From Fidelibacterota bacterium (GTDB taxonomy: Bacteria; Fidelibacterota; SORT01): a stretch of DNA of 64,000 nt. Every line of letters starts with the position of its first letter. The stretch's first letter is position 1. Where the stretch lies: NCBI GenBank assembly GCA_022573815.1, contig JACZTG010000001.1, positions 859 to 64,858 of the forward strand, in the 5' to 3' direction. A program made the position numbers and the translations under genes. The notes under the pieces are model-generated. The model was not told where the DNA came from, ran no database searches, and saw only the letters and a program-made list of their open reading frames with translations. Shown one piece after another: positions 130 to 22,394 of the stretch.

Positions 130-174
130 AGCTTACAAAATATGTCGAACGTTTTTGATTGAGGATTACTAATT

Positions 175-549
175 ATGGTAGAAGAAGGAAAGGTAACAAT
201 TTTTGTGACGTTCGGACCTGAGATGCCTCAACGGTGCGCTACACCGTTTTATATGGCAAATGTGGCTATGGCTATGGACAATGAGGCGGAAATGATATTT
301 CAGATAGACGGTACGTTGTTACTGAAAAAAGGTGTTGCAGAGGGAATAGTAGCCAAAGAAGGGGGAAAGAAAATAATTGATTTTATAAGAGAAGCAAAAG
401 AAGCAGGTGTGAAAATGCGCGTTTGTTCCGCGTCTCTTCAGCTCCACGATATGACAGAAGATGATTTGATCGAAGAAGTGGACGGCGTGGTAGGAGCCGC
501 TTATATGACAGATGTAGGTATGGACAGCGACTTAGTTTTAAGTTATTAA
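175..549 (+). CDS. DsrE/DsrF/TusD-family sulfur-carrier protein (DsrE3-like)
   Basis: 124 aa. The C-terminal AGVKMRVCSASL is typical of the conserved Cys loop of the DsrE/TusD fold, with a further Cys in QRCATPF. Its position directly upstream of the GcvH-like and hdrCBA genes matches the known sHdr locus context. Confidence 0.55.
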   Translation: MVEEGKVTIFVTFGPEMPQRCATPFYMANVAMAMDNEAEMIFQIDGTLLLKKGVAEGIVAKEGGKKIIDFIREAKEAGVKMRVCSASLQLHDMTEDDLIEEVDGVVGAAYMTDVGMDSDLVLSY

Positions 550-603
550 AAGGGGAGAAGCCTCATCGCCGAAATAAATAATTGTGTACTGCCGGATGAC
601 CTG

Positions 604-1026
604 ATGTATCATATTGATTTTAACGTTTGGGTCAGGGATAACGGCGATGGCACTCTGAATATCGGCTTGACGGATATAGCGCAAACAATGGCAGGCTCGG
701 TTATTCACTGCATGCCTAAAAAGGTCGGTAAAGTAGTCAAAAAAGGAAAAAGTCTCTCTACAGTTGAAAGCGGGAAATGGGTAGGTCCTATCAAATCACC
801 TTTTGGAGGCGAAATTATCGCCGTAAATGAAGAAGCACAAAAGGATGCCACTATTTTAAATCGAAGTCCTTATAAGGACGGATGGATAGTGCAACTTAAA
901 CCTAATAATTACGAAGAGGATAAAGCCGAATTACATACAGCCGAGGATGCGATACCTCTTTTTGCGGCATATATGTCCGAAAACGATCTGGGGGAATGTA
1001 TTCATTGCGAGGGATTTGAAAGCTGA
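604..1026 (+). CDS. lbpA: Glycine-cleavage-H-like lipoate-binding protein (LbpA-type)
   Basis: 140 aa. TVESGKWVGPIKSPFGGEI matches the GcvH lipoyl-lysine motif (E-S-x-K, with K the lipoylation site) and GcvH-like hybrid-barrel spacing. It sits in the sHdr locus. Confidence 0.6.
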   Translation: MYHIDFNVWVRDNGDGTLNIGLTDIAQTMAGSVIHCMPKKVGKVVKKGKSLSTVESGKWVGPIKSPFGGEIIAVNEEAQKDATILNRSPYKDGWIVQLKPNNYEEDKAELHTAEDAIPLFAAYMSENDLGECIHCEGFES

Positions 1027-1087
1027 GGGGAGCTTAAACTGATAATTCATATCAATACGCCAGGAATCAGAAAGGTTCGCTTATTTT

Positions 1088-1375
1088 TTGGAAAATAATA
1101 AAGATCTGCTCATTAAGGTATTTACACATCCTGCCTGCAGCGGCTGCGGGAGAGCGGTTGAACTTGCATGGAATCTCACACAGGAATACACTTCGTTGAA
1201 ATTGGTGACAATTAAACTCGAAAATAAAGAAGGTCTCCGGATGGCTCACGACGCAAAAATAAAAACAATCCCTACAGTGATTTATTATTCAGGTGAAGAA
1301 GAAAAAATACGAATTGTCGGAACGCCTAAAGGATCTGAACTGAAAGATTCTTATCTGAAATTGTTAGAAAATTAA
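1088..1375 (+). CDS. Small thioredoxin-fold protein with a CxxC motif (CSGC)
   Basis: 95 aa with a TTG start. HPACSGCGRAVE carries the CxxC motif. It occupies the slot where a TusA-like carrier is usually found in sHdr loci. Confidence 0.45.
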   Translation: MENNKDLLIKVFTHPACSGCGRAVELAWNLTQEYTSLKLVTIKLENKEGLRMAHDAKIKTIPTVIYYSGEEEKIRIVGTPKGSELKDSYLKLLEN

Positions 1376-1473
1376 AAGAACAGGAGAAAGCTCTGTCAAT
1401 TTATAAAGACGCAAAGTATCAGGACGTACCTTATGAAGAGAAGAAGGCTCTTTTCGATGAAGTTAAAGGCGAT

Positions 1474-2112
1474 ATGCGTTGGGATCACATATTCAATGGT
1501 TGTTATGAATGCGGCATCTGTGTAGCAGCGTGCCCTTCAGCAAGGTTCTACGACTTTAGTCCCCGTGTGTTCGTTCAAACTCTCGAGCGGGAAGATATTG
1601 ACACGTTTTATGAACTGATGAATGATTCCGTTTGGGATTGTTCCCAGTGTTTCTCCTGCACTCGCTGTCCGAGGCAGTCAAATCCCGGCGCTCTTATAAC
1701 CGTAATGCGGGAAGTAGCTGTGAACAACGGCCTGCAATCCGCCAAAGATGCGCTGAAATCATACAGTCGAATTATTTATAAAATTATGTCAACCGGAACG
1801 CAGGTGGCTCCTGATATGCTGCAGCCGGATGCGTTCCCCGATTGGGGTCCTCGTGTGAAGGAGATATCCGATAATCTTGAAGATTGGAGAAGAGCAATTC
1901 CGCCCGAGACGCTGCACACAGTTGAGCTCGCATGGGACGTAAGTATAAAAACGCGCTTGGAACTATTTATGATTTGGAAGCTTACAGGAAATCTTGATAT
2001 GATTCAAAATATCGATGAAGGAATATTTATGATACTTGAGGAAGTGATGGAAGAACTCCTTGAAGAACATGGATATGATATTGATGATTATGATAATATC
2101 ATCGATGATTAA
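1474..2112 (+). CDS. hdrC: Heterodisulfide reductase subunit C-like protein (sHdrC1)
   Basis: Two ferredoxin-type motifs: CGICVAACP and CSQCFSCTRCP. It is followed by the hdrB- and hdrA-like genes. Confidence 0.7.
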   Translation: MRWDHIFNGCYECGICVAACPSARFYDFSPRVFVQTLEREDIDTFYELMNDSVWDCSQCFSCTRCPRQSNPGALITVMREVAVNNGLQSAKDALKSYSRIIYKIMSTGTQVAPDMLQPDAFPDWGPRVKEISDNLEDWRRAIPPETLHTVELAWDVSIKTRLELFMIWKLTGNLDMIQNIDEGIFMILEEVMEELLEEHGYDIDDYDNIIDD

Positions 2113-2135
2113 AAGTTAAAAGAAAGGAACAGATA

Positions 2136-3332
2136 ATGTCCGGCATAACAGTGGATTCGGTAATACCTAAGGTAAGCATGAGAAAGTTCGAAAGAACTGA
2201 AGCGCCGCCTACCGAAGATTATAGAGAAAAATTATTCGAGCTGGAAAAAGCGGGCGAAATCGAAGTGATAAGAGTTCCAGAGCCTTACGTGGAAGTCGAA
2301 ACAAAATACGGAAGATTGAAAAAAATCCCGTTGGACCATACCTGGCATCATAAATCATGCGGTCAATGCGGGCATATTCCCGGATATTCAACGGCAATTT
2401 TCTGGCTCAACAGACAATTCGGTTTTGATTATCACGACCCGAGAGACCAGACCTCATGTACTGCATGGAATTATTATGCTTCTGCCACATCAAATTCAGC
2501 CGCTCAGGCATCAGTGGCAGTTCGAAATTTCGCACAGGCAAAAATTGACGGATATTTTCCGATAATCCATTGTGGTACTAGCTACGGACACTATAAAGAA
2601 GTGCGTTCGGATCTGTTGGAATTTCCTGAATTGAGAGAAAAAGTTCGTAAGGTATTAGCCCGAATGGGAAAAACTTTGGTATTCCCGGAAGAGATTGTGC
2701 ATTATTCGGAATGGGTTCACGTGATGCGACATAAAATTGCAGATAGACAAGTTTTGGACTTCAGCAATTTGACGATTACCGTTCATCCGGCGTGCCATTA
2801 TCATAAACTCGTGGTGGAAGACGCTATTTACGATAAAGAGCTATATAATGGTCAGCGAACTGCTATTGTCAGCGGATTGGTTAAGGCGATGGGAGCGAAA
2901 CTCGCTGATTACTCTACGTGGCATGATTGTTGTGGCTTCGGTTTCCGCCATATACTGGTCAGCAGAGATTTTTCACGTTCATTTGCAACATTGAGAAAAA
3001 TCGAAGTAATGATTAAAGAGGCTAACCCGGATCTTACGCTCACTCATGATACGGGCTGCGTGACTACTCTTGATCAGAGTCAGTTTGCCGCCAAAGCCCA
3101 CAACAAAAAAGTCGGAATTCCCGTGATGTCTGATGCTCAATTTGCGGCATTGTCTATGGGAGCGCATCCATTCAAAGTGTGCCAATTACACTGGCATAAT
3201 ATGGAAATAAGAACAATACTCGAAAAAATGGGAATTGATTATGATAAGGCTTGGGCTGAATTTCAGCTACAAGTCGATCGGATCAAGTCCGGAGAAATTG
3301 ATTACCTAACCTGGGAGGATGCAGATGCCTGA
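2136..3332 (+). CDS. hdrB: Heterodisulfide reductase subunit B-like protein (sHdrB1), two CCG domains
   Basis: 398 aa. It has the Cys-rich CCG signatures HKSCGQCGH and WHDCCGFGFRH and overlaps the start of hdrA by 14 nt. Confidence 0.7.
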   Translation: MSGITVDSVIPKVSMRKFERTEAPPTEDYREKLFELEKAGEIEVIRVPEPYVEVETKYGRLKKIPLDHTWHHKSCGQCGHIPGYSTAIFWLNRQFGFDYHDPRDQTSCTAWNYYASATSNSAAQASVAVRNFAQAKIDGYFPIIHCGTSYGHYKEVRSDLLEFPELREKVRKVLARMGKTLVFPEEIVHYSEWVHVMRHKIADRQVLDFSNLTITVHPACHYHKLVVEDAIYDKELYNGQRTAIVSGLVKAMGAKLADYSTWHDCCGFGFRHILVSRDFSRSFATLRKIEVMIKEANPDLTLTHDTGCVTTLDQSQFAAKAHNKKVGIPVMSDAQFAALSMGAHPFKVCQLHWHNMEIRTILEKMGIDYDKAWAEFQLQVDRIKSGEIDYLTWEDADA

Positions 3333-4386
3333 TCTGCCTGTTTTAGTTATCGGGGGAGGTCCGTGCGGGTTGGAGGCGACCCGGGGAATATCAGACCTTG
3401 GATATAATGTCATACTTGTTGATAAAGCCGAGTTTTTAGGCGGAACGCCTATTTCGGCAGACTACGCTGCGCTGACGCCTGATATGAGAAGCGCGGAAGA
3501 CGCTATGAATGAGATGATCGATGCCATAAAAGATAATCCGTTAGTTGACCTTCGCCTGAATTCATCAGTGATCTCGACTGAGGGCGACGCACCTGATTTG
3601 AAAATCGGAATCAAAAATGGAAAGGGTGAAGAAGTGGTAGATGTAGGCAGTGTCATCGTTTCTACCGGCTTTCAGCATTTTGATCCGGGCAAAGAAACAC
3701 AGATGTACGGATATTATGAATACGACGATGTAATAACTCTTGTGGATGTGGAGCGTATGCTGAAGGCGGGTACTTTCGTCCGTCCTTCCACAGGAGAAAA
3801 ACCGAAACAGGTTTGCTTTATCCAATGTGTTGGAAGCAGGGATCGGCAAATAGGAAATCAGTGGTGTTCCAAAGTGTGCTGCGGAGTCGCAACAAAAGAA
3901 GCAATTGAAATCCGGGATATGGTGCCCGATTGCCGGGTATTCGTTTTTTATATCGACATGAGAATGTATGGATTTTGGGAGGACGAGCTCTACTGGAAAG
4001 CGCAGGAAGAAAAACAGGTGAATTTCATCAGAGGCATTGTCACAGAGATAACGATGCGCGGAGATACTCTTGTGGTCAAAGGTGAAGATACTACTATGGG
4101 CAGACCGATGGAGATACCAATGGATGTTGTAATTTTATCAATTGGTATGGAACCGAGTAAAGGCTCAAAAGATATGGCAAAAATCTTCAAATTACCTTTG
4201 GAACCACACGGTTTTATTGAAACGATCGGTGGAGCGCTGAACACGGTTCAAACTTCCGTTAAAGGAGTATTCGCAGCCGGCGCATCCACAGGACCGGCGG
4301 ATTTGGAAGACTCGATATCAATGGGCGGCGCCGCCGCAATGAAGGCGTGCGCATTCATCAGAAAATCACAATTAGAGACTGCCTAA
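3319..4386 (+). CDS. hdrA: HdrA-like FAD-dependent FeS flavoprotein (short sHdrA type without ferredoxin domains)
   Basis: 355 aa. It has an N-terminal VIGGGPCGLEA dinucleotide fold and the HdrA-specific cluster motif CVGSRD...CSKVCC. Confidence 0.7.
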   Translation: MQMPDLPVLVIGGGPCGLEATRGISDLGYNVILVDKAEFLGGTPISADYAALTPDMRSAEDAMNEMIDAIKDNPLVDLRLNSSVISTEGDAPDLKIGIKNGKGEEVVDVGSVIVSTGFQHFDPGKETQMYGYYEYDDVITLVDVERMLKAGTFVRPSTGEKPKQVCFIQCVGSRDRQIGNQWCSKVCCGVATKEAIEIRDMVPDCRVFVFYIDMRMYGFWEDELYWKAQEEKQVNFIRGIVTEITMRGDTLVVKGEDTTMGRPMEIPMDVVILSIGMEPSKGSKDMAKIFKLPLEPHGFIETIGGALNTVQTSVKGVFAAGASTGPADLEDSISMGGAAAMKACAFIRKSQLETA

Positions 4387-4390
4387 CCGA

Positions 4391-5149
4391 TTGCTTTACG
4401 ACTCAATCACATTTAAGGAAATAGTAGATGCGGATTCCGCTCAGGAATTTATGAAAGAAGCAACCAAGCTAGCCAAAACGTGGGAGCTGGAGGATATTGG
4501 GAGAAAGCTCGAGGCTAAAAGCGCGATAATTTCCGGGATTCTTGCAGAGGATAAGATTGATTCGTTAAATGAAGATGATCTAAAAAAGGTCATCGGAATG
4601 ATTTTTACGATTCGCCGTAAAACCAAAAGGATATTGAAAGCGAACGGTCTTGATAATATCAGATCATCAATAACTGATTTACTTTACGGTGAAAAGCGAT
4701 TAGAAGACCGTTTTGATGAATTCGTCAATTCAATAGAATCTGTAGAGATGAAAATGCGGCTCAACTTTGCCGGCGAGCTCCTGCACTATAGCAACCCCGA
4801 TAAATATTGGTTATGGACGAATTGGATTTGGGATCCTGATACTAAAACAGGTTCTCTGCCGTTAGTGATACAGGATTTTTCCAATCTATCGGGAACGTCA
4901 TTAGGGGATACATATTTGCGAGTTGGTAAAGCTACTCTAATGGTGAATGCAGTTGGACATAAGGTAAGTTTTTCGGATATGGCAAAAGGACTTTTCGGAA
5001 CAAATTTATTCTTAGCGTGTGTTTACGCTGTATATATGTACACGGTGTTTAAAGTGAAATTATCTCAAGAATTCAATAGGATTTTACCCGAGTTGGCGGA
5101 ACTGACACAAAGGGTATTGGGTGTTTACCAAATGGAGCTTAAGAACTAA
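4391..5149 (+). CDS. Conserved hypothetical protein occupying the 'hyp' position of shdrC1B1A-hyp-... loci
   Basis: 252 aa with no recognisable motif. The call rests on position only, as I recall the sHdr locus architecture. Its stop overlaps the next gene's ATG by 1 nt. Confidence 0.4.
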   Translation: MLYDSITFKEIVDADSAQEFMKEATKLAKTWELEDIGRKLEAKSAIISGILAEDKIDSLNEDDLKKVIGMIFTIRRKTKRILKANGLDNIRSSITDLLYGEKRLEDRFDEFVNSIESVEMKMRLNFAGELLHYSNPDKYWLWTNWIWDPDTKTGSLPLVIQDFSNLSGTSLGDTYLRVGKATLMVNAVGHKVSFSDMAKGLFGTNLFLACVYAVYMYTVFKVKLSQEFNRILPELAELTQRVLGVYQMELKN

Positions 5150-6444
5150 TGGGAGATCATAAATACGAAAAATTCGTCCAATTAGATAACGCTATTGTTG
5201 ACGGTGTGGACATTTCAGGTGAATGGAACAAGATGTACGAACCCAGGGAAATCATGGAATATGATTTAACTTATCTGGACAAGGTTATTAATACTCCCGG
5301 CGGTGAATCTATGGGTTGGTGCTATCAATGCGCCAAGTGCATAGGCGTTTGTCCCGTAGATAATGTGGGAAGCTACGGGCCGAGAAAGATATACCGGAAA
5401 CTCCAAACCGGTTATAATCTTTTTGAGGAAGCTGATCTTTGGCTCTGTACTTCCTGCAATAACTGTCTGCGTGTATGTCCAAAAGAAGTTGATATGATGA
5501 AGATAATGCCGGCAATTCGCGAGCAAGCTGTCCTTGACGGAAACGTTCCCGAAGAATTGCAGACTATGCTTCAAAACGTAGCCGAATACGGCAATCCGAT
5601 GGGCGAGTCGCCGCGGAAAAGAGTCAAGTGGACAAAAGATTTGGATGAGACTGTTCGCGATCTTACAAAAGAAGAAGATCCCGGCGCTGTTGATGTCCTC
5701 TGGTATGTAAGCGATTATTTCAGCTATCATAATCGCGGTAATGACGCAGCCAAGGCGATGGTTCGTGTATTCAACAAATTGAATATTGATTACGGTATTT
5801 TAGGAAAAGAGGAAAGGTGCGACGGCGATTCTCAGCGGTTAGTAGGAGAATCAGGTCTTTTTGAACAGCTCGCCGAGCATAACGACGGACTCTTTCAGAA
5901 ATTCGAGCATAACACGCTTGTGGTAAGCGACCCTCACGCCTTTAACGCTTTCAAAAACTTCTATCCAAAAGTCACGGGCAATGAGTACAATGTTCAGCAT
6001 TATACTCAATTCCTGTCGGGCAAGGTGGAAGAATTGAAGTCACTCTATACAACGGAATTCAAGAAAAAAGTCACCTTTCATGACCCGTGCTACTTAGGAA
6101 GACACAACGGAGAGTTTGAGGCTCCCCGCGATCTGATAAATTCAATTCCCGGTGTTGAGTTTGTCGAAATGTACAGGAATCGTCAGCAGGGGTATTGTTG
6201 CGGCGGCGGCGGCGGTGGAATGTGGTTAGATGGATTGGTCGCCGATCATACGACCGAACGTCTGTCGGAAAACAGGGTAAAGGAAGCTGTGGAAGTAGGA
6301 GCGGAGGTATTGGTTGTATGCTGTCCCTACGAAGTGTCCCGTTTTGAAGATGCGGTAAAATCAACCAACAATGACGAAAATCTTGAAGTGTGGGATATTA
6401 TTGAGATAATTGATTTCTGCATCTCCGGCGGAGCTGCAGCGTAA
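5149..6444 (+). CDS. Fused HdrC-HdrB-like protein (ferredoxin-type dicluster N-terminus plus CCG domain C-terminus; sHdrB3 / C2B2-fusion-like)
   Basis: CYQCAKCIGVCP and CTSCNNCLRVCP form the 2x[4Fe-4S] region. The C-terminus has HDPCYLGRHNGEFEAPRDL...GYCCGGGGGGMW, a CCG domain. Confidence 0.65.
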   Translation: MGDHKYEKFVQLDNAIVDGVDISGEWNKMYEPREIMEYDLTYLDKVINTPGGESMGWCYQCAKCIGVCPVDNVGSYGPRKIYRKLQTGYNLFEEADLWLCTSCNNCLRVCPKEVDMMKIMPAIREQAVLDGNVPEELQTMLQNVAEYGNPMGESPRKRVKWTKDLDETVRDLTKEEDPGAVDVLWYVSDYFSYHNRGNDAAKAMVRVFNKLNIDYGILGKEERCDGDSQRLVGESGLFEQLAEHNDGLFQKFEHNTLVVSDPHAFNAFKNFYPKVTGNEYNVQHYTQFLSGKVEELKSLYTTEFKKKVTFHDPCYLGRHNGEFEAPRDLINSIPGVEFVEMYRNRQQGYCCGGGGGGMWLDGLVADHTTERLSENRVKEAVEVGAEVLVVCCPYEVSRFEDAVKSTNNDENLEVWDIIEIIDFCISGGAAA

Positions 6445-6497
6445 GATTTTATTAAGCGTTGAAAGACAAAATAACAATTAAAGAGAACGGCTGACCT

Positions 6498-7004
6498 ATG
6501 GAAAATTCACTTGCTGTCAATTTAGCGGATGCATCCTGGCAACGGTTGCGTTCTATGGCATTGGCAACCGAACGGTATGAAAACTTTGTGGCGCTGGGTT
6601 CATCGAATATGTCAGATGATAAAAGTAACGGGAAATGGACACCGAATTTAAAGATAAACCCGCCTGAGGCTCTGGCGCTGGATTATCTGTCTATGACCAT
6701 AAGAGACGCGTTTGAAAGAGAAAATTCTGAGATAATGCTCCAACTTTCAGGAACCGAGCAAATCCAGCCTCTGGCTTTATCCGAGAAATTGGGAATGGCA
6801 GAACTTTCCTTGAGAGAAAGACTCGGAAATCTTTCTCAATGCGGATTAGTAATGAAAAATCTTGAGAGCGGGGGATATTTACTTACCGATGCGGGTGACG
6901 CTGTTGCGAACCTGATTCGAGATGCGGTGACCAATTTATCCCTGCGGATCGAGAAGGAACTCCCGGAACTCAATATAAAAAAAGAAGAACTCAAACATTG
7001 CTGA
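6498..7004 (+). CDS. Putative winged-helix transcriptional regulator (ArsR/MarR-like fold suspected)
   Basis: 168 aa. The segment IQPLALSEKLGMAELSLRERLGNLSQCGLVMKNLESGGYLLTD resembles an HTH followed by a wing. sHdr loci are known to carry ArsR-type repressors. This is a weak pattern-only call. Confidence 0.3.
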   Translation: MENSLAVNLADASWQRLRSMALATERYENFVALGSSNMSDDKSNGKWTPNLKINPPEALALDYLSMTIRDAFERENSEIMLQLSGTEQIQPLALSEKLGMAELSLRERLGNLSQCGLVMKNLESGGYLLTDAGDAVANLIRDAVTNLSLRIEKELPELNIKKEELKHC

Positions 7005-7241
7005 TTGGCGAGCGCATTGAATTGGGTGATTGTGGAATGGGGATGCCTGTCATCCGCGCATGGCAGGCGCTGAAGAAACAGCCCGTCGGGGGAATAGTCT
7101 GGTTGACGAGTTCACATCCGTGAGCGGAGCCCGATATCAACGCCTGGTGCAGGTCGTCCGGACAGAAGTTGCTGAAGATGGAAGAGGACGCTGAAGGAAA
7201 ACATTTTTACGTTCAAAGGATGAACTGATAAGGGAGAAATA

Positions 7242-7985: not shown

Positions 7986-8036
7986 TGAACAGTATTAAAA
8001 AACAGATATTAATTTTATATAATAAATGGAATATAT

Positions 8037-8972: not shown

Positions 8973-9051
8973 TCCGGTTGTCATATTGAGATATTCCATT
9001 TGGTCTGTCTCGTTGCTTCATTATTAATAACCTGTTAAATGCGAGTAAACT

Positions 9052-11097: not shown

Positions 11098-11106
11098 GAG
11101 AGAAGT

Positions 11107-11553
11107 ATGAGCGACAGCACACAACTAAAATTTCCTGCCGACCGATATTACCATTCATCCAATCATATGTGGGCTAAGGAGACGGATGAAAACGGTGAAA
11201 TACTGGTAGGCATTGATGCGTTAGCGCTCGATTCGCTGGGTGAAATAGCCTATGCGTCTTTTGTTGAGATAAATACGGAAGTTAAAGCAGGCGACTCTAT
11301 CGGTACGCTTGAATCCGCCAAGATGACCACCGAAATATTCTCTCCCATATCCGGCGTGGTATCAGCTGTGAACGACATAGTACCGGAAACTCCGCTGCTT
11401 ATCAACGAACAGCCCTACGGTGAGGGTTGGCTGGTTGTTATCCGTGCGTCAGCTTGGGAAGCTGAATGCGCTGATTTAATATCTGGCGAAGAGATTTTTG
11501 AATGGTCACAGAATGAAATCGCAAGATATGAAACGGAAAATAATCAGAACTGA
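11107..11553 (+). CDS. lbpA: Second GcvH-like lipoate-binding protein (LbpA paralog)
   Basis: 148 aa. GTLESAKMTTEIFSPISGVV carries the lipoyl-lysine motif. Its TGATG overlap couples it to the downstream ligase gene. Confidence 0.6.
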   Translation: MSDSTQLKFPADRYYHSSNHMWAKETDENGEILVGIDALALDSLGEIAYASFVEINTEVKAGDSIGTLESAKMTTEIFSPISGVVSAVNDIVPETPLLINEQPYGEGWLVVIRASAWEAECADLISGEEIFEWSQNEIARYETENNQN

Positions 11554-13644: not shown

Positions 13645-13655
13645 AAGGGATAATA

Positions 13656-14747: not shown

Positions 14748-14750
14748 ATT

Positions 14751-15743
14751 ATGGTAAAACCGATACGATTGATAGATTTAGGAGCGATTGACGGCATAAT
14801 GACTCAGGCGGTGTATCACGCGGTAGCGGAGAAAATGGATGAGTCAACGCCCGATACCATAATACTGAACAGCACAAAATCTCCGTATGTTTGTTTTGGC
14901 TATCATCAGGATGCGGAAAGTGTCATAGATTTGGATGTGTGCAGAAAATTAAATGTACCTGCGGTTCGCCGTAAATTGGGCGGAGGCGCTACTTATCTTG
15001 ATGAAAATCAGCTCTTTTACCAGCTGGTATTTCAAAAATCGGAATTGCCGGCAAATTTCAGGAATGTTTATGCGAAAATGTTGGAAGCGCCCGTGAAAAC
15101 CCTAAAATCGTTTGGACTTAACGCAAAACTAAAAGATATAAACGAGATAGAGGTTGACGGCAAACGGATTGCCGGAACGGGTGGCGGGCAAATAGGCGAT
15201 GCGTGTGTTGTTGTGGGGAACTTTTTATTCGATTTCGATTTTGAAGCTATGTCTTCATTATGGAAAGCTCCATGGGATTCTTTCCGAACACTTGCGGGAA
15301 AAGCGCTTAGGAACCACATTACAACTCTTTGGGAATACGACAGTTCATTCAGCAAAGAAATCATATCGTCGCAACTGATAATAGATTTTTCAGCTGTTTT
15401 TCAAAGACCGATTCAGCCGGGAGAATTAACTTCAGATGAGAAAGAACTCTCGGAGGAATTATCTGAGAAATTGAGCTCAACAGAGTTTGTTGTTGATACC
15501 AATAAAAACGGTGCGTCGCCAAGACCGCTTAAAATTTCTAACGGAGTTTTTATACACGCTGAAAATTATTCTTTGGGAGTAAATAGAATACGCGGCAGCT
15601 TTACGGTGGCAAATAATTTCATAGAAGAATCAATAATCGAGCTGCGGAATGGCAATTTATGGGAAGCAATTGATGTTGATCTTTATGGAATAGAGATTGC
15701 TGATTGGACAAATCATATTAAAATTGAATTGCGTGCTGCCTGA
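14751..15743 (+). CDS. Second LplA/LipB-family protein (lipoate/octanoyl transferase paralog)
   Basis: 330 aa. RRKLGGGATYLDENQLFYQ and IEVDGKRIAGTG parallel the motifs of the ligase at 11553. Confidence 0.5.
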   Translation: MVKPIRLIDLGAIDGIMTQAVYHAVAEKMDESTPDTIILNSTKSPYVCFGYHQDAESVIDLDVCRKLNVPAVRRKLGGGATYLDENQLFYQLVFQKSELPANFRNVYAKMLEAPVKTLKSFGLNAKLKDINEIEVDGKRIAGTGGGQIGDACVVVGNFLFDFDFEAMSSLWKAPWDSFRTLAGKALRNHITTLWEYDSSFSKEIISSQLIIDFSAVFQRPIQPGELTSDEKELSEELSEKLSSTEFVVDTNKNGASPRPLKISNGVFIHAENYSLGVNRIRGSFTVANNFIEESIIELRNGNLWEAIDVDLYGIEIADWTNHIKIELRAA

Positions 15744-16906
15744 TGGTTAAACTGCTAAAAAAATATCTGTCTGACCCGTTCCTGAAGCGGCTTTACAGTG
15801 AGATTCGAAAAGCAGGCTCTCTCCGGTCCATCTCTGTGGACATCACTCACGAGTGCAATATCCGGTGCAGAGGGTGTTATTTTTTCAGCGAGGGAATGGA
15901 AGAGTCTGAGTCTCCTCCCGATGAAAACAAATTTGATGCGTTTATAGAACGAGAGCTCGAACGGGGAACTAATTTTGTCACTGTTGTGGGAGGCGAACCG
16001 AGTCTCATGCTGGGGAGACTGAAAAAACTTCATTCAAATTTTCATATAAATGTTTCAACAAACGGTCTTATAAAAATACCATATGAAGGGTTCGAGTCAA
16101 TGCCTATCGGTGTTTCGGTATGGGGAGATAATCAGACAGACAGATATATGCGAGGCGGCGGAAACGTTGATACATTCGCGATAGCGCTGAAGAATTACAA
16201 AGACGATCCAAGAGCGTTCTGGTACTATACTGTGGCTCCGGGACGGAAGAATGAGATTGAGCGGGTAGTGGAGAAGTGTATAAACAACGGTAATCAGGTT
16301 TTATTTAATTTTTACGGCGATTTGTTAGGATTTGGCGGGGAATTGGATTCCGGCAGCGGTTTTGACGAAGTGAGAATTGAGATAGACCGAATGATCAGCC
16401 TCTACCCTGATAAGATGTTTATGAGTTCTTACCTGAGTAAAATCGTTTCAACAGGCACTTTATACGGTTTGAAATGGGGACATGAAGTATGCACGAGTTT
16501 GAGCGCGAATCACGAGGCGAATTTCGAAAGATTGAAAAACGGAAATCCTTATAACCCGCACTTCAGAGCTTATAATGCTGATTTGGAATCTACTCGTAGA
16601 TGCTGTACCGGAATCAACCGTTCGTGCCATACTTGTTTCGATGTCTGGGAGCATTTTTCGTGGGTAATTCTCAATATGAAAAAACATATCGGATCTAAGC
16701 AGGAATTCAGTAACTGGCTAACGACTATGTATCTGTTTTATCTTATAAACCGATTGGTGAATTTTGATGAAGGGATCAAGCTACTGCCGGAAATCCACAA
16801 ACGGCTTGGAAATACGACTAAGAGAGAATCACATAATATAGATAGAATCAAAATTTCTGCTTTCGCTACCGTGGAAAGCGGGTTAATGGAGATTACCGAT
16901 CCCTGA
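15743..16906 (+). CDS. Third radical SAM enzyme, carrying an additional C-terminal Cys cluster
   Basis: ITHECNIRCRGCYF is the radical SAM motif. The C-terminal RRCCTGINRSCHTCFD cluster could hold an auxiliary FeS cluster. Confidence 0.5.
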   Translation: MVKLLKKYLSDPFLKRLYSEIRKAGSLRSISVDITHECNIRCRGCYFFSEGMEESESPPDENKFDAFIERELERGTNFVTVVGGEPSLMLGRLKKLHSNFHINVSTNGLIKIPYEGFESMPIGVSVWGDNQTDRYMRGGGNVDTFAIALKNYKDDPRAFWYYTVAPGRKNEIERVVEKCINNGNQVLFNFYGDLLGFGGELDSGSGFDEVRIEIDRMISLYPDKMFMSSYLSKIVSTGTLYGLKWGHEVCTSLSANHEANFERLKNGNPYNPHFRAYNADLESTRRCCTGINRSCHTCFDVWEHFSWVILNMKKHIGSKQEFSNWLTTMYLFYLINRLVNFDEGIKLLPEIHKRLGNTTKRESHNIDRIKISAFATVESGLMEITDP

Positions 16907-16934
16907 TTTTGATTCAAAACAGGAGGAGCGAAAA

Positions 16935-17951
16935 ATGATAAACAATAACCATCGTTACTTGTCGTTGTTGGTAACACTGTTTTTCTTAGTCTCAATCCCG
17001 GCATTCAGCGACGCAGCCAAAAAGGAATACAGAGTGTATGAGTTCGTAATTGAATCTGTCGAGGGTACATTTGAAGCGGCGGCAGACAGCCTTTCTTCGG
17101 CGATAGCAATGTCGGATTGGAAGCTGCTTACTACTATCAATTCCGGTGTTCCGGAAGATTGTGGATTCCGTGCTATAGTATTTGTTTTATATGATTCGAC
17201 ATTCGCGGCGAAAATAATGGATGCGAACCATAAAACAGGGGCTTACGGCACTGTTGACCGGATAAATCTCTTTGAAGATGAAAACGGATTTCACGTGTCG
17301 ATTGCAAACCGCAAATCAACTGACCGGACGGTCTTGTTGGATGATGAGTCATTCGAGGGAACTACTAAGGCGCAGCATGATAATCTCCGGCTGCTTATTG
17401 AATCAGCCCTAAAGGGCACATCAAGCAACAAAGAATATGGTCAGAAGCGTAAAAAAGGATATATCGGACGAACAATGGGCGTTATGGCCGGCGGAAGTTT
17501 TGATGGCAAGATTGGTAATATTATTGAATTACCCGGAGCAAACTTTGACGATGTGGTCGGTAAAGCTCGCCAGGGTTTATCTATGACCGGTGAGAAATGG
17601 GGGATGCACTTAGTTTACGAATTAAATCTTCCCGGATATAAAACTGTGGTATTCGGAAGTACGGGGACTCCGATGGACAGGAAATCATTCGATATAGTTA
17701 AGGCGGGTTCGGACAAATCACGCAAAAAGGGAAAGTGTCCCGGAATTGCTCATGCCGCCGCTTTTCCGATTGAAATCGTAGTACAGGAAGAAAACGGAGT
17801 TATCAATGTCAGTAGCGTTAATGCGATGTACAGGATGAAGATGTATTTTGAGGACGCCGGGAAATGGGCGTTTATGAAAAATATGACTATGCCCGGTTCA
17901 ATAGGAAGTGAATTGGAAGATCAGATCGAAGGAGTATTGGAAGAAGAATGA
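16935..17951 (+). CDS. Secreted protein with two DUF302-like repeats (tentative)
   Basis: The signal peptide is MINNNHRYLSLLVTLFFLVSIPAFSDA. Two segments have a DUF302-like pattern: AIVFVLYDS...GTVDRINLFEDENGFHVS and TVVFGSTGTPMD...FPIEIVVQEENGVINVS. Its stop overlaps the next gene (ATGA). Confidence 0.3.
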   Translation: MINNNHRYLSLLVTLFFLVSIPAFSDAAKKEYRVYEFVIESVEGTFEAAADSLSSAIAMSDWKLLTTINSGVPEDCGFRAIVFVLYDSTFAAKIMDANHKTGAYGTVDRINLFEDENGFHVSIANRKSTDRTVLLDDESFEGTTKAQHDNLRLLIESALKGTSSNKEYGQKRKKGYIGRTMGVMAGGSFDGKIGNIIELPGANFDDVVGKARQGLSMTGEKWGMHLVYELNLPGYKTVVFGSTGTPMDRKSFDIVKAGSDKSRKKGKCPGIAHAAAFPIEIVVQEENGVINVSSVNAMYRMKMYFEDAGKWAFMKNMTMPGSIGSELEDQIEGVLEEE

Positions 17952-19531
17952 ACTTAGCATTCACAATAGATAATCGGAAGTGTATCGGCTGTCATGCTTG
18001 CACGGTAGCATGTAAGTCAGAGCATGATATTCCATTAGGAGTCAACAGAACATGGGTAAAGTATGTGGAAAAGGGCGTTTATCCCGATACCCGCAGACTT
18101 TTCTCGGTTCTTCGGTGCAACCATTGTGAAGATGCTCCTTGCATTGATATATGCCCGACCAATGCTCTGCACACTCTCGATAACGGTATTGTGGACTTTG
18201 ATACTGATCGGTGTATAGGCTGCAAATCATGCATGCAAGCGTGTCCGTATGACGCGTTATATATCAATCCGGAAACTCACGTGGCAGAAAAATGTAATTT
18301 CTGCGCCCACCGGATAGAAGCGCAAATGGCGCCGGCATGCGTGATTGTATGTCCCGTTGAGGCGATTGGATTTGGCGATATAAGTGACCCGAACGCCGAT
18401 ATTACGAAACTTATCGCAATGGAAGCTGTTACCGTGCGAAAAGCGGAAAAAGGAACAAAGCCGAAAGTGTTTTATATTAACGGTGACAGCGCTTCGCTTG
18501 ATCCCGGCTCAACTGCAAAAAAAGACGAATATATGTGGAGCGAGCAATCACGCGGTGTGGGACATTTCGCTCATTACGCCGACCAACGGAGCTCTGAAAA
18601 AGACCCTGAAGATCTGCTCGTGCAACTCGCTCTTGATAATAAGGGTAAACATGGGAAAGAGATTCAGGAGACGCTGAAATCCGGGGATGCCCGAAGAGTT
18701 TACGACAGTCCGAGCAAGGGCGTTCTCTGGGGCTGGGAAGTATCCGCTTATGTTTGGACAAAGGCTATTTCAGCGGGTCTGTTTATGGTATTGGCTTTAG
18801 GAAGCTTGTTCGGATGGTTTGAGATAAGCGCTGGATTGAGAGAAAAATCTCTCTGGTCGTCAATGCTCTTTTTGGTCATTACCGGCGGACTGTTGGTTAA
18901 GGACCTTGACCAACCGAAACGGTTTCTCTATGTCCTGCTCCGACCTCATTGGTCATCGTGGTTGGTCAAAGGAGCTTATTTCATCACGGCGTTCGGGGCA
19001 ATCTTATCTCTTTCCATATTGAATCTTTATTTCCCAACAGGAATAGACAGTCGTCTGTTTGATATTATCGGAGGCTTGATTGCCTTTATGGTAGCCATAT
19101 ACACGGCGTTACTTTTCGCTCAGGCGAAGGGAAGAGATTTTTGGCAGTCGCCGATTGCGCCGGCGCAAATGGGTGTGAATTCACTGCTTGCCGGAACTGC
19201 GCTTCTGCTGATGCTCGGCTCCGGCTTAGGCAGCGGGATAATCAATCTCGCAATAGCTCTTCTGATTACAAACCTGTTATTCACCGCACTTGAGCTGTTC
19301 ACGCCGCATATGACGGACGACGCAAAATCGGTTGCGGATATGATTCTTAAAGGGAGATACGGCAGACAATTCTGGATAACGATAATTTTTTCAAGAGTAG
19401 TACCGCTATTATTGTTTATGTTCGCGCCGCAATTATTGCCAATAGATTTAGTGGCGTTGATAGTATTAGCGGGAATATTAAGTACTGAACATATCTGGGT
19501 CAGAGCTCCGCAACTGATAACCTTGAGTTGA
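17948..19531 (+). CDS. Fusion of a four-cluster ferredoxin subunit (PsrB/NrfC/DmsB-like) with an NrfD/PsrC-like integral membrane anchor
   Basis: 527 aa. The N-terminal ~180 aa hold four Cys clusters: CIGCHACTVAC, CNHCEDAPCIDICP, CIGCKSCMQACP and CNFCAHRIEAQMAPACVIVCP. The C-terminal ~330 aa form about 8 hydrophobic helices. No signal or Tat motif is visible. Confidence 0.6.
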   Translation: MNLAFTIDNRKCIGCHACTVACKSEHDIPLGVNRTWVKYVEKGVYPDTRRLFSVLRCNHCEDAPCIDICPTNALHTLDNGIVDFDTDRCIGCKSCMQACPYDALYINPETHVAEKCNFCAHRIEAQMAPACVIVCPVEAIGFGDISDPNADITKLIAMEAVTVRKAEKGTKPKVFYINGDSASLDPGSTAKKDEYMWSEQSRGVGHFAHYADQRSSEKDPEDLLVQLALDNKGKHGKEIQETLKSGDARRVYDSPSKGVLWGWEVSAYVWTKAISAGLFMVLALGSLFGWFEISAGLREKSLWSSMLFLVITGGLLVKDLDQPKRFLYVLLRPHWSSWLVKGAYFITAFGAILSLSILNLYFPTGIDSRLFDIIGGLIAFMVAIYTALLFAQAKGRDFWQSPIAPAQMGVNSLLAGTALLLMLGSGLGSGIINLAIALLITNLLFTALELFTPHMTDDAKSVADMILKGRYGRQFWITIIFSRVVPLLLFMFAPQLLPIDLVALIVLAGILSTEHIWVRAPQLITLS

Positions 19532-19535
19532 TAAA

Positions 19536-22394
19536 ATGAGTCATAATATAAAAAAATCAATGATCGAACGGGTATGCGAATCGATAGGCTTGTTAAAAAG
19601 TATCGAACAGTCCGGCGAATTAATAAATGAATTTACGGAAGCACCGGCTGATTTCTCGAATTATCCACCACCTGAGAAATGGGACGACTGGACCGAGTAC
19701 GATGCGAACTCGTGGCCGCGAAGGGTAAAGAAGAGCTACTCGATAGTTCCAACGACCTGCTTCAACTGCGAATCAGCATGCGGTATGCTGGCGTATATTG
19801 ATAAGGAAAATGGCACAATCAGGCGGTTTGAAGGTAATCCGTATCATCCGGGAAGCAGAGGAAGAAATTGCGCTAAAGGTCCCGCTACTATAAATCAGAT
19901 CAATGATCCCGAGAGGATATTATACCCGCTGAAACGTAAAGGCGAGAGAGGCAGCGGTGAATGGGAACGGGTTTCATGGGAAGACGCTCTTAACGATATA
20001 TCAGGAAAATTAAGAAAATCGTTGCAGGAAGGGCGACAAAATAATATAGCCTATCATGTAGGAAGACCGGGTCATGAAGGATACACGGAAAGGGTTCTTC
20101 AGGCGTGGGGAGTGGATGGGCATAATTCGCATACCAATATATGCTCTGCCGGAGCGCGGACAGGATATGCTCTCTGGCAAATGTTCGACAGACCCTCTCC
20201 CGACCACGCCAACGCAAAGACGATCTTACTCATCAGTTCACATTTGGAAACGGGACACTATTTCAATCCGCACGCGCAAAGGATAATTGAAGGGATGATG
20301 GACGGCGCGAAACTCATAGTTATGGATCCGCGACTTTCGAATACTGCGAGTATGGCGGATGTATGGATGCCGACTTATCCGGGTTCTGAAGCGGCTGTAC
20401 TGCTTGCAATTGCGAAAATCATTCTCGATGAAGGCAAATATGACAGACAATATATGGAAACATGGGTAAACTGGCAGGATTATATGGCGAAAGTTCATCC
20501 TTCTGATAATCCGACTTTTGATAACTTTATAGGACGACTCAAAAAAGAGTATGAAGAATTCACACCTGAATTCGCGGCGGCTGAGGCTAATATCACACCT
20601 GAGTCTATCGTACAGGCAGCTAAAATGGTGGCGGATGCGGGAAGTAAACTCTCAACGCACAACTGGCGTTCCGCGGGAAGCGGGAACCTCGGCGGATGGC
20701 AGGTAGCGCGTTGTCTCCACTTTCTGAATGTATTGACAGGCAGCGTTGGAACTGTAGGCGGCACATCTCCCAGCGGTTGGAATAAATTCAAGCCTAAATT
20801 CTTCGATGTTCCTCCGGCACAGAAATTCTGGAATGAACTGCACTATCCCGCTGAATATCCGATAGCGCACCATGAAATGAGTTTTCTTCTCCCGCATTTT
20901 CTAAAGGAGGGAAGAGGGGAATTAGACGTTTACTTCACCCGGGTTTTTAATCCTGTCTGGACTTATCCGGACGGATTCACATGGATAGAAGCGTTGAAGG
21001 ATGAATCAAAAATAAAATTACACGTTGCGATGACTCCCACATGGAACGAAACGGCTTATTGGGCGGATTATGTGCTTCCCATGGGGCATGCAGGCGAGCG
21101 GCACGACCTTAATTCCTACGAAACACATTCAGGAATGTGGATAGCGTTCCGTCAGCCGGTGCTACGGGAGTTTGCCCGCAGAGAAGGAAAAGAGGTTGAG
21201 TTTACTTATGAAGTGAACCCCGGTGAGGTATGGGAAGAAGATGAGTTTTGGATAGAGCTTTCGTGGAAGATAGACCCGGATGAATCGCTCGGCATAAGAA
21301 AACATTTCAAGTCTCCTTATCGTGATGGCGAAAAAATCAGTGTGGACGAATATTATCAATATATCTTTGAAAATATTCCGGGCTTGAAGGATAAAGCCGC
21401 TGAGGAAGATTTGGCTCCGCTTGACTATATGAGAAAATACGGCGCATTTGAAATTGAAGAAACTTCATACGAAAAAAACCGAAACCCGCTGGATGAATCA
21501 CAAATGGAAGGCACGGAACTGAACAGCGCCGGTCAGATCGTTAAAGACGGTAAAATTATCGGGGTTCAGGATGGCGAAGTAGCTGTCACCGGGTTTCCGA
21601 CACCATCGAAAAAACAGGAATTCTACTCCAACACAATGGCTGAATGGAAATGGGAAGAATTTACCATCCCTAAATATATCAAGAGTCACATTCACCCCGA
21701 GAATCTTGATAAATCGAAAAACGAATACGTCCTTGTGCCCACTTTCAGACTACCTACCTTGATTCACAGCCGGTCGGGAAACGCTAAATGGCTCGTTGAG
21801 ATTGCGCACCGAAATCCAATATGGATCCATCCTTCCACAGCTGAAAAAGTAGGTATAAAAAACAGCAGCGATCTACTGAAGATTGAAACAGAAATCGGCT
21901 ATTTCATAGACAAGGTATGGATAACGGAGGGGATGAAGCCCGATGTTATCGCCTGTTCCCATCATATCGGCAGATGGCGTCGCCGGCAGGATATGAAAGG
22001 AAACAGTTGGGCAATGAATACGGTTTCTATCGAAGAGGTAGAGCCGGGTAAGTATAAAATGTCGGTTTTGGATTCTGTTAAGCCATTTGACAGCAGCGAC
22101 AGCGACTCGAAACGTATCTGGTGGCGTGACGGCGGAGTGCATCAAAATATTACATTCCCTGTCCATCCCGATCCTATATCGGGTATGCATTGCTGGCATC
22201 AGAAAGTATCCATCAGCGTTCCGAAGGATGGGGAGAAATACGGCGATATATTCGTGGACACGAATAAGTCCCATGAGGTTTATAAAGAGTGGCTGAAGTT
22301 GACCCGTCCCGGCCCCGGCCCTGACGGCTTGAGACGTCCTCTCTGGTTTGCCCGGACTCTGAGACCGGCGGAAGAAACTTTCTACGTTAAATAA
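19536..22394 (+). CDS. Molybdopterin oxidoreductase catalytic subunit (MopB superfamily; Psr/Phs/Ttr/Arr-like branch suspected), apparently without a Tat signal
   Basis: 952 aa. CFNCESACGM...C provides the N-terminal FeS0 site. GNPYHPGSRGRNCAKG is a MopB signature and ICSAG is a candidate Mo-ligand Cys. The N-terminus has no RRxFLK motif. Confidence 0.7.
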   Translation: MSHNIKKSMIERVCESIGLLKSIEQSGELINEFTEAPADFSNYPPPEKWDDWTEYDANSWPRRVKKSYSIVPTTCFNCESACGMLAYIDKENGTIRRFEGNPYHPGSRGRNCAKGPATINQINDPERILYPLKRKGERGSGEWERVSWEDALNDISGKLRKSLQEGRQNNIAYHVGRPGHEGYTERVLQAWGVDGHNSHTNICSAGARTGYALWQMFDRPSPDHANAKTILLISSHLETGHYFNPHAQRIIEGMMDGAKLIVMDPRLSNTASMADVWMPTYPGSEAAVLLAIAKIILDEGKYDRQYMETWVNWQDYMAKVHPSDNPTFDNFIGRLKKEYEEFTPEFAAAEANITPESIVQAAKMVADAGSKLSTHNWRSAGSGNLGGWQVARCLHFLNVLTGSVGTVGGTSPSGWNKFKPKFFDVPPAQKFWNELHYPAEYPIAHHEMSFLLPHFLKEGRGELDVYFTRVFNPVWTYPDGFTWIEALKDESKIKLHVAMTPTWNETAYWADYVLPMGHAGERHDLNSYETHSGMWIAFRQPVLREFARREGKEVEFTYEVNPGEVWEEDEFWIELSWKIDPDESLGIRKHFKSPYRDGEKISVDEYYQYIFENIPGLKDKAAEEDLAPLDYMRKYGAFEIEETSYEKNRNPLDESQMEGTELNSAGQIVKDGKIIGVQDGEVAVTGFPTPSKKQEFYSNTMAEWKWEEFTIPKYIKSHIHPENLDKSKNEYVLVPTFRLPTLIHSRSGNAKWLVEIAHRNPIWIHPSTAEKVGIKNSSDLLKIETEIGYFIDKVWITEGMKPDVIACSHHIGRWRRRQDMKGNSWAMNTVSIEEVEPGKYKMSVLDSVKPFDSSDSDSKRIWWRDGGVHQNITFPVHPDPISGMHCWHQKVSISVPKDGEKYGDIFVDTNKSHEVYKEWLKLTRPGPGPDGLRRPLWFARTLRPAEETFYVK

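Follow-up and report, generated by a model that had tools for sequence, protein, structure and literature searches.

Type II sHdr systems are defined by shdrC1B1AHB3 together with etfAB (and emo) in one syntenic cluster, in which sHdrB3 is a C2/B2 fusion that binds only one non-cubane iron-sulfur (FeS) cluster (Tanabe 2024), and Marinisomatota are already listed among the phyla with type I or type II systems (Tanabe et al. 2024). For the lipoate-binding proteins (LbpA) of such systems, the sLpl(AB)-LipS1/LipS2 pathway has been described, with a ligase and two radical S-adenosylmethionine (SAM) proteins encoded beside lbpA (Tanabe 2023). Among the molybdoenzymes that handle sulfur compounds, SoeABC of A. 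vinosum and A. aeolicus is a characterised cytoplasm-facing sulfite:quinone oxidoreductase, and PSRLC3 of green sulfur bacteria, encoded by two genes, is an inferred sulfite oxidase. The psrBCA genes of Marine Group A (Wright et al. 2013/2014), with a PsrBC fusion, no twin-arginine translocation (Tat) signal and pentose-phosphate and rhodanese genes nearby, are closest to green-sulfur-bacterial homologs and were published as polysulfide reductase; elsewhere their role is called unresolved. Here we analyse a gene cluster at positions 175-22394 of a 64,000-nt stretch of a Fidelibacterota genome (contig JACZTG010000001.1; the whole stretch is called the window, and all cluster coordinates are window positions). 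Judging from its genes and their relatives, the cluster probably encodes a full route by which protein-bound sulfane sulfur is oxidised to sulfate in the cytoplasm; it is composed of three evolutionarily separable modules: a type II sHdr core, a lipoate assembly set, and a molybdenum (Mo) enzyme.

Gene content of the cluster

The cluster comprises 21 open reading frames (ORFs), all on the plus strand. A first-pass annotation of this stretch had counted 22, its own list also summing to 21; the single strand, the tight packing, and the overlaps that it described all hold. Gaps between genes are at most 98 bp, with one exception of 237 bp before etfB, and starts and stops overlap at six junctions (sHdrB1/A, H/B3, LbpA2/sLpl, sLpl/LipS1, Lpl2/rSAM3, and o338/FeS-NrfD; the last-named genes are introduced below). 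Parts or all of the cluster may be co-transcribed. We searched the window proteins against Pfam, NCBIfam, and PDB, and judged equivalog status by curated bit-score cutoffs. Pfam and NCBIfam bore out the domain content proposed in the first pass for most genes, the exceptions being a DUF302-like and a regulator-like label. The genes of the core, with the DsrE and thioredoxin-like genes that precede it, are as follows.

175-549 (+): DsrE-family sulfur transferase, 124 aa, first gene of the cluster (Pfam DsrE, 53.7 bits)
1088-1375 (+): thioredoxin-like protein, 95 aa (Thioredoxin, 26.6 bits)
1474-2112 (+): sHdrC1, ferredoxin-like, with two CX2CX2CX3C motifs (Fer4_8 and HdrC models, sub-threshold)
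2136-3332 (+): sHdrB1, CCG-domain protein (non-cubane FeS), putative catalytic subunit (CCG, 34 bits; PDB HdrB, 59 bits)
3319-4386 (+): sHdrA, short FAD/[4Fe-4S] flavoprotein, 355 aa (gene callers start at 3325)
4391-5149 (+): hypothetical protein at the sHdrH position, 252 aa (position between A and B3 conserved; orthologs 34-49% identical)
5149-6444 (+): sHdrB3, an HdrC2-HdrB2 fusion with two ferredoxin motifs (CX2CX2CX3C) and a single CCG motif (Fer4; CCG, 71.7 bits)
7242-7985 (+): EtfB (ETF, 98.6 bits)
8037-8972 (+): EtfA (ETF and ETF_alpha)
9052-11097 (+): EMO/EtfD-like membrane ETF:(methyl)menaquinone oxidoreductase, 681 aa, with 5-6 N-terminal transmembrane helices, 2x[4Fe-4S], and one CCG domain

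Both order and domains match the published definition of type II, as the first pass had proposed: the C1-B1-A-H-B3 genes are syntenic at 1474-6444, etfAB and emo lie in the same cluster, and B3 carries a single CCG motif. The likeness to the described type II sHdr-LbpA systems (Justice 2014; Cao 2018; Tanabe 2024) extends from the C1-B1-A-H-B3, etfBA, and emo set and its order to the presence of two LbpA paralogs, a thioredoxin-like gene (a "thdx" gene is also drawn in published Sulfobacillus hdr clusters), and DsrE and TusA neighbours. The locus differs from them in having a Mo enzyme directly 3' and no LipT, and in carrying a second ligase (Lpl2), a third radical SAM protein (rSAM3), and a secreted 338-aa protein (o338), which are unmentioned in accessible type II descriptions.

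We asked whether the Hdr subunits side with sHdr or with the Hdr of methanogens and sulfate reducers, and the PDB ranking favours the former. The protein most similar to sHdrA is Hyphomicrobium denitrificans sHdrA (PDB 6TJR; 304.6 bits over residues 7-349, full-length), whereas methanogen HdrA reaches ~200 bits over a sub-region only. Methanogen-type equivalog models score far below their cutoffs (HdrA 217-259 vs. 1100-1400; HdrB 123 vs. 450; HdrC 79 vs. 350). Moreover, HdrABC of methanogens and sulfate reducers has a long HdrA (~650 aa) with several ferredoxin domains, unlike the 355-aa protein found here. Orthologs of sHdrC1 and sHdrB1 are 66-82% and 66-72% identical, respectively; the 252-aa protein at the sHdrH position gave no match in Pfam and NCBIfam searches. 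DsrE orthologs adjoin LbpA1-sHdrC1 in loci from Marinimicrobia, Planctomycetota, KSB1, and Bacteroidota, and the same sHdr/lipoate gene set recurs in loci of Marinimicrobia, Calditrichota, KSB1, Planctomycetota, Bacteroidota, and Acidobacteriota, so the synteny that the first pass proposed to look for in related genomes is conserved across several phyla. The core is very probably a type II sHdr system with its lipoate assembly set, to judge by gene order, domains, and closest homologs.

The membrane protein encoded after etfBA matches PDB 9OJN ("iron-sulfur-binding reductase") with 280 bits, an entry that we take to be the mycobacterial ETF:menaquinone oxidoreductase EtfD. It shares with mycobacterial EtfD and syntroph EMO the membrane domain, the 2x[4Fe-4S] and CCG parts, and the position behind etfBA. 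It would differ in receiving its electrons from sHdr and not from acyl-CoA dehydrogenases.

The first pass had found no TusA, which turned out to reflect the edge of the window. A contig 99.86% identical to window positions 1-11026 (L094) extends beyond the window start by 967 bp, where genes for TusA and a DsrE2-like protein lie; in a second contig (L001, 98.7% identical; 6036-7201), an ArsR-type regulator with one Cys, TusA with a CPLP motif, and a 173-aa DsrE2-like protein lie directly upstream. With LbpA1, LbpA2, and DsrE inside the window, and TusA and DsrE2 just upstream in these contigs, the locus has the LbpA proteins and sulfur transferases expected of type II. A strong terminator-like hairpin lies between the upstream tusA-dsrE2 unit, which is outside the window, and dsrE.

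92-123 (+): terminator-like hairpin, 12-bp stem and T-run

A terminator scan of the coding strand found nothing comparable inside the cluster, and a weak hairpin 3' of its last gene. The sigma-70 promoter scan did not rise above shuffled background (44 found vs. 36 expected), FCB-type promoters being outside the coverage of the model.

Lipoate-binding proteins and lipoate assembly

Two GcvH-like carriers and the genes for their predicted maturation belong to the cluster.

604-1026 (+): LbpA1, GcvH-like lipoate-binding protein with lipoyl-lysine motif ESGK (GCV_H, 122.9 bits)
11107-11553 (+): LbpA2, second GcvH-like lipoate-binding protein, motif ESAK (GCV_H, 95.7 bits)
11553-12677 (+): sLpl(AB) lipoate:protein ligase, 374 aa, with intact G-R-K-I-A-G and a C-terminal LplB-like part (LplA-B_cat, 132 bits)
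12625-13644 (+): LipS1, radical SAM lipoyl synthase component (likely true start 12670, from the gene call in contig L096)
13623-14747 (+): LipS2, putative radical SAM lipoyl synthase component (likely true start 13656; Radical_SAM, 58 bits)
14751-15743 (+): Lpl2, LplA-family paralog, 330 aa, without LplB part, reading G-K-R-I-A-G (LplA-B_cat, 106 bits)

Although all PDB matches of the LbpAs are labelled GcvH, neither protein reaches the two GcvH equivalog cutoffs (LbpA1, 107.2 vs. 117 and 75.4 vs. 115.85; LbpA2, 104.9 vs. 117 and 96.1 vs. 115.85), and neither gcvT nor gcvP was found in the window. The possibility that these are H proteins of glycine cleavage, which the first pass had named as a check, was thus answered in the negative. 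Their genomic neighbourhoods are characteristic as well: LbpA1 orthologs adjoin sHdrC1 in other phyla, and LbpA2 always adjoins sLpl/LipS genes in related loci.

The dedicated sLpl-LipS1/LipS2 set is present as first proposed, LipS2 being its putative member. The ligase has an LplB match at residues 267-347 and scores 164.7 bits with TIGR00545, under the cutoff of 280. LipS1 and LipS2 are the best NCBIfam matches of the two radical SAM proteins: the former passes NF053742 at the borderline (230.6 vs. 230), and the latter covers the full-length NF053743 profile with 196.3 bits, below the cutoff of 270. As in the described pathway, the ligase and both radical SAM proteins are encoded beside lbpA; the differences are the lack of LipT, an extra ligase paralog with a changed lysine position, and an extra radical SAM protein. 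Pfam and NCBIfam searches indeed found no LipT in the window, but the absence, true as the first pass had stated it, is not the novelty that it was taken for. LipT is present in only ~53% of LipS1/S2-containing bacteria and absent from ~47%, and its absence here therefore says little.

The second ligase was likewise correctly spotted but is not new in kind, as a ligase paralog near shdr genes, which showed no ligase or transferase activity on LbpA1/2, is known from Thioalkalivibrio (TK90_0648). The G-K-R-I-A-G substitution of Lpl2 is kept in three orthologs from two phyla (Marinimicrobia and Acidobacteriota). The lysine position that it alters is presumably that of the catalytic lysine of the LplA family.

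Accessory proteins

The two genes that follow Lpl2 encode proteins that reach no curated family.

15743-16906 (+): rSAM3, SPASM/twitch-like radical SAM protein, 387 aa, with CX3CX2C and six further invariant Cys
16935-17951 (+): o338, 338-aa protein with N-terminal signal/anchor helix (transmembrane helix at residues 9-27; right end of the indel described below at codon 187)

Pfam and NCBIfam searches placed rSAM3 in no curated family. The first pass had pointed to this third radical SAM protein and its extra cysteines; it proved to be a conserved and apparently undescribed accessory, whose family is 60-77% identical across phyla with the CX3CX2C motif and the six extra Cys invariant. The AlphaFold2 model (pLDDT 85.9) found its best Foldseek matches in BlsE, CteB, SuiB, anSME, and GDGT-MAS, at a TM-score of ~0.4 only, and the accessible sHdr literature does not mention the protein.

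To survey its occurrence, we scanned species-representative genomes and then ran tblastn with all 21 window proteins, taking rSAM3 homologs of at least 46% identity and their 10-kb neighbourhoods. This gave 54 loci. LipS or Lpl genes lie within 10 kb in 26 of them, most with sHdr, Etf, and EMO genes as well, and these lipoate-type loci come from Marinimicrobia, Calditrichota, KSB1, Planctomycetota, Saprospirales, Cyclobacteriaceae, and other Bacteroidota; rSAM3 and sHdr/lipoate genes also occur together in a locus from Acidobacteriota. In all, rSAM3 recurs in type II clusters across about seven phylum-level lineages, often paired with Lpl2. The Mo module is found within 10 kb in only four of the 26. 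Thus, rSAM3 belongs with the sHdr/lipoate genes and not with the Mo enzyme.

Two simpler assignments were considered and rejected. A maturase of the Mo enzyme is contradicted by Bacteroidota and Acidobacteriota, where rSAM3 occurs with sHdr/lipoate genes and without a Mo enzyme. Strict specificity for sHdr is contradicted by the other 28 of the 54 close homologs, which have no sHdr or lipoate genes nearby.

Some of the latter loci hint at a chemistry. In Nostoc punctiforme NIES-2108 (L034, 9956-12225), two tandem rSAM3 paralogs, 59% and 55% identical, sit between an acyl carrier protein (ACP) gene and ketosynthase genes in a polyketide synthase (PKS)/HMG-CoA-synthase/enoyl-CoA hydratase cassette, far from sulfur genes. 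In Enhygromyxa salina (L033, 10001-11158), a homolog abuts a hybrid acyl-AMP-ligase/PKS, again far from sulfur genes. With members of its family next to ACP and ketosynthase genes in PKS clusters of cyanobacteria and myxobacteria, rSAM3 probably acts on carrier-bound acyl chains and might functionalise a C-H bond of such an aliphatic chain. From there one may ask whether the type II sHdr systems of FCB, PVC, and Acidobacteriota need a third maturation step of LbpA, performed by Lpl2 and rSAM3. We regard this as possible, though rather unlikely; if true, LbpA would carry a modified cofactor in place of plain lipoate, or would be lipoylated by other chemistry. In any case, rSAM3 is the most novel element of the locus.

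The first-pass label of o338 as a tandem DUF302-like protein did not survive: the protein has no Pfam match even at E <= 10, no NCBIfam family, and no PDB sequence match, and its halves are not significantly similar (E = 0.75), leaving no signal of an internal repeat. Homologs (57-59% identical) lie downstream of EMO in Calditrichaceae sHdr clusters (L016, 16721-17866; L058) with no adjacent Mo enzyme. From this distribution, o338 seems to belong to the sHdr side. A 314-aa protein at the equivalent position in a Marinimicrobia relative (L004, below) shows no detectable homology to it, and a 347-aa protein of another locus (L008) is similar only in the last 76 residues.

The molybdoenzyme

The last two genes of the cluster form the Mo module, which is encoded, like PSRLC3, by two genes.

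17948-19531 (+): fusion of a four-cluster ferredoxin (SoeB/PsrB-like) and an NrfD-type anchor (SoeC/PsrC-like), 527 aa (Fer4_11 and NrfD)
19536-22394 (+): MopB, Mo-bisPGD catalytic subunit, 952 aa, 109.1 kDa, SoeA/PSRLC3-like (FS0 Cys motif; conserved Cys203)

We take Cys203 to be the probable Mo ligand. No export signal was found in MopB: the conserved N-terminal extension is hydrophilic and shows neither an RRxFLK motif nor an h-region, and no transmembrane helix is predicted in the protein. The FeS-NrfD fusion also lacks a signal peptide, as it starts at the first ferredoxin motif, and the TtrB, NrfC, and DsrO profiles align from ~41-45, with the Tat leader missing. Because there are no Tat or Sec signals, both catalytic parts of the enzyme should face the cytoplasm, with NrfD inverted as proposed for SoeC. 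The set of parts corresponds to that of SoeABC, namely a Mo-bisPGD subunit with FS0, a four-cluster FeS protein, and NrfD. Indeed, the module shares with SoeABC/PSRLC3 the three functions of a complex iron-sulfur molybdoenzyme, the lack of signal peptides, a catalytic subunit of ~109 kDa, and the linkage to cytoplasmic sulfite producers; it differs from SoeABC in the fusion of FeS and NrfD parts and in the gene order BC-A. A KEGG-based survey reported SoeC only in Proteobacteria, Clostridia, and Aquificae.

The enzyme had been put forward as a new context for sHdr, yet the same Tat-less arrangement with a fused FeS-NrfD protein was described in 2013 for Marine Group A psrBCA. The PsrBC fusion, the BC-A order, and the absence of Tat on PsrA are common to both, and the pentose-phosphate and rhodanese genes that flank the Marine Group A genes are also shared by the relative L004. 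What differs is that the module lies here downstream of sHdr, which argues for an oxidative, sulfite-consuming role.

MopB homologs are ~70% identical across Marinimicrobia, Bacteroidota, KSB1, Calditrichota, SAR324, and Verrucomicrobiota, and 50-57% identical in Thermomicrobium, Rhodococcus, and haloarchaea (plasmid tblastn). Their neighbourhoods are informative. In a Marinimicrobia genome (GCA_002717695, L004), the order is ArsR, TusA, DsrE2, a Rhodanese+Lactamase_B fusion (6320-7474), the 314-aa protein, FeS/NrfD, MopB, and a Na_sulph_symp permease. We read the Rhodanese+Lactamase_B fusion, which occupies the position of the sHdr block, as a putative enzyme of the persulfide-dioxygenase type, that is, another sulfite producer. 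On a Thermomicrobium roseum megaplasmid (L007, 18099-22850), FeS-NrfD (43% identical to the fusion in the window) and MopB stand alone behind a CsoR-family "metal-sensitive" regulator, a family that includes persulfide sensors. Because the neighbours are cytoplasmic sulfite-producing systems (sHdr or persulfide-dioxygenase-like) and Tat signals are missing, the enzyme can be read as consuming sulfite. By analogy with these systems, a Soe/PSRLC3-like sulfite dehydrogenase is the function towards which we lean.

It is improbable, although worth weighing, that MopB is instead a polysulfide, thiosulfate, or sulfur reductase of the Psr/Phs/Sre kind, which would reduce sulfur compounds or, run in reverse, oxidise sulfide. 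The published interpretation of the homologous psrBCA says so, the best NCBIfam and PDB matches are PhsA and PsrA, and reviews hold these enzymes inseparable by sequence. However, the similarity to PsrA, the closest solved structure (2VPW), is low and partial (113 bits, residues 65-319 only), and the score with PhsA (NF012032) is far below the family cutoff (195 vs. 694 bits). Characterised Psr, Phs, and Ttr are periplasmic, whereas neither subunit here has a Tat signal and the active site should be cytoplasmic; and the conserved neighbours of the module are cytoplasmic sulfite-producing systems and sulfur carriers.

Relation between the modules

In the first pass, a single electron-transfer unit of sHdr, Etf, the HdrD-like membrane protein, and the Mo enzyme had been suggested, in effect one supercomplex encoded by one supraoperon. 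The genes are indeed tightly packed in one direction, with overlaps, including that of o338 and FeS-NrfD and a gap of 4 bp before MopB, and the full arrangement, from sHdr/lipoate/rSAM3 through FeS-NrfD to MopB, recurs in another widespread Marinimicrobia lineage, in KSB1, and in Bacteroidota. We nevertheless consider a physically coupled unit very unlikely. The Mo module occurs alone in Thermomicrobium and with a different sulfite-producing enzyme in Marinimicrobia GCA_002717695; it is missing within 10 kb of 22 of the 26 lipoate/sHdr-type rSAM3 loci; its genes lie on the opposite strand in a Bacteroidota locus (L066); and a natural variant of the present locus drops the sHdr block and keeps the Mo genes. 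Moreover, EMO is by itself a complete module for coupling to quinone, and so is the NrfD domain. The three modules share substrates and the quinone pool, and nothing indicates a single electron-transfer complex; hand-over of sulfite from sHdr to the Mo enzyme would explain the linkage better.

A role of the Hdr, Etf, and EMO proteins outside sulfur metabolism, be it in redox reactions of the Flx/Hdr type or in acyl-CoA/ETF respiration with the GcvH-like proteins as ordinary H proteins, is highly improbable. EtfAB-EMO/EtfD also serves fatty-acid oxidation, the membrane protein has its homolog in PDB 9OJN, and the GCV_H matches are strong. Yet sHdrA is specifically closest to that of a sulfur oxidiser, the LbpAs miss the GcvH cutoffs, gcvT/gcvP and acyl-CoA dehydrogenase genes are absent from the cluster, DsrE, TusA, and DsrE2 flank it, and a dedicated LipS1/S2 set like this one typifies sHdr clusters.

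Strain-level variation

A co-occurring strain variant lacks most of the cluster as a single block.

677-17494 (no strand): 16.8-kb block from LbpA1 codon 25 to o338 codon 187, absent from a co-occurring strain variant

In this variant (contig L001), window position 676 is joined directly to 17495, with almost no homology at the deletion junction (CGGA/A); the genes for LbpA1 and o338 are truncated, and the Mo module is kept. In two other samples, the block forms a separate contig of 17,017 bp that overlaps both flanks, and the right flank begins exactly at 17495. In one sample, the block was covered 10.1x and the flank 16.3x. Exact-sequence look-ups of o338 and FeS-NrfD found no record, and that of rSAM3 gave only the 17,017-bp block contig.

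In the window, the two genes that the junctions interrupt are whole: LbpA1 has a full-length GCV_H match, and o338 aligns across the junction without gaps to a Calditrichaceae homolog, at 59% identity. For this reason, we take the deletion form to be derived, with presence and absence of the entire sHdr block as a polymorphism of the population, and consider assembly chimerism unlikely. That the adjacency itself is an artefact, the 16.8-kb block having been mis-joined into a DsrE/Mo-enzyme locus, is scarcely credible despite the contig that joins 676 to 17495 and the two assemblies that break exactly at 17495, because both junction-cut genes are intact, L094 gives independent continuity across the left junction with 99.86% identity, each flank is overlapped by the block contigs, the order from rSAM3 to the Mo enzyme is found in homologous loci too, and the coverage difference fits a mixed population.

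Other features of the window

One further ORF lies between sHdrB3 and EtfB.

6498-7004 (+): 168-aa ORF with a weak winged-helix hint (HVO_A0261_N, 21 bits; cutoff 35)

This one sub-threshold match is all that speaks for the first-pass label of a regulator-like protein, which we do not keep. The ORF is not conserved in most related loci, and a homolog was seen only in a KSB1 locus (L065).

Right after MopB, in convergent orientation, lies a gene for a FadL/TodX-type outer-membrane channel (22528-23823, -), which the deletion-variant contigs retain as well. Elsewhere the window holds chromosomal housekeeping genes (ffh, rpsP, rimM, trmD, rplS, selAB, mutS, gmk, rpoZ, coaBC) and type IX secretion genes. 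The closest named homolog of MutS, with 74% identity, is from Candidatus Marinimicrobia, and therefore we assign the host to Marinisomatota (SAR406). The contigs identical or near-identical to the window derive from marine metagenome assemblies. The type IX secretion genes, for a protein with a Por_Secre_tail sorting domain (28657-30378, -) and a PorU sortase (37114-41163, -), are consistent with a host of the FCB group.

The selenocysteine machinery genes selA and selB are found at 48794-52089. No tRNA-Sec and no obvious selenoprotein gene were found in the window, and MopB has Cys at the expected position of the Mo ligand. The ORF of ribosomal protein S16 (44713-45759) is 348 aa long, with the S16 domain confined to the first ~67 residues; AT skew is strong in this region (0.34), suggesting a long, low-complexity C-terminal extension.

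Discussion

We propose the following course for the route. TusA and DsrE2, encoded upstream of the window, and DsrE would relay sulfane sulfur to the lipoamide arm of LbpA1 or LbpA2. The sHdrA-B1-C1-H-B3 complex would then oxidise the LbpA-bound sulfur to sulfite, the electrons passing through EtfBA and the membrane EMO/EtfD-like protein to the menaquinone pool. To prepare the carriers, sLpl(AB) would place octanoate or lipoate on the LbpAs and LipS1/LipS2 would insert the sulfurs, with Lpl2 and rSAM3 as conserved accessories that probably perform another step on the carrier-bound acyl chain. Finally, the cytoplasm-facing Mo enzyme, with its SoeA/PSRLC3-like subunit and fused SoeB-SoeC-like partner, would oxidise sulfite to sulfate and reduce quinone.

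Several points weigh against this scheme. The type II sHdr complex has never been characterised biochemically, and the literature offers no direct proof for type II. Of the two lipoyl synthase components, LipS1 only just reaches its family cutoff and LipS2 stays under its own. The best NCBIfam match of MopB is PhsA, reviews find Psr, Phs, Sre, and Soe hard to tell apart by sequence, and the likeness of MopB to characterised SoeA (D3RNN8, aq_1234) was judged indirectly, from architecture, context, and literature. Lastly, independent assemblies break at the right junction of the 16.8-kb block, so that it is the window, together with homologous arrangements, that joins rSAM3 and o338 directly to the Mo genes.

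The cluster thus represents a described system, in a phylum where its presence had been reported, and most of the novelties claimed at first are explained away; the basic picture of the sHdr pathway is unchanged. Three points of interest are left. The first is Lpl2 and rSAM3, conserved accessories of type II sHdr that are undescribed in the accessible literature. The second is the strain-level gain and loss of the 16.8-kb block: an sHdr block that a single population gains or loses as a whole bears on how sulfur-oxidation potential is inferred from metagenome-assembled genomes. The third is a rereading, from context, of the "psr" genes of SAR406/Marinimicrobia. These abundant genes are usually cited for polysulfide reduction in oxygen-minimum zones, yet here and in relatives they directly follow cytoplasmic sulfite-producing systems, and from this context sulfite oxidation, and with it a lifestyle based on sulfur oxidation, is the more likely reading.

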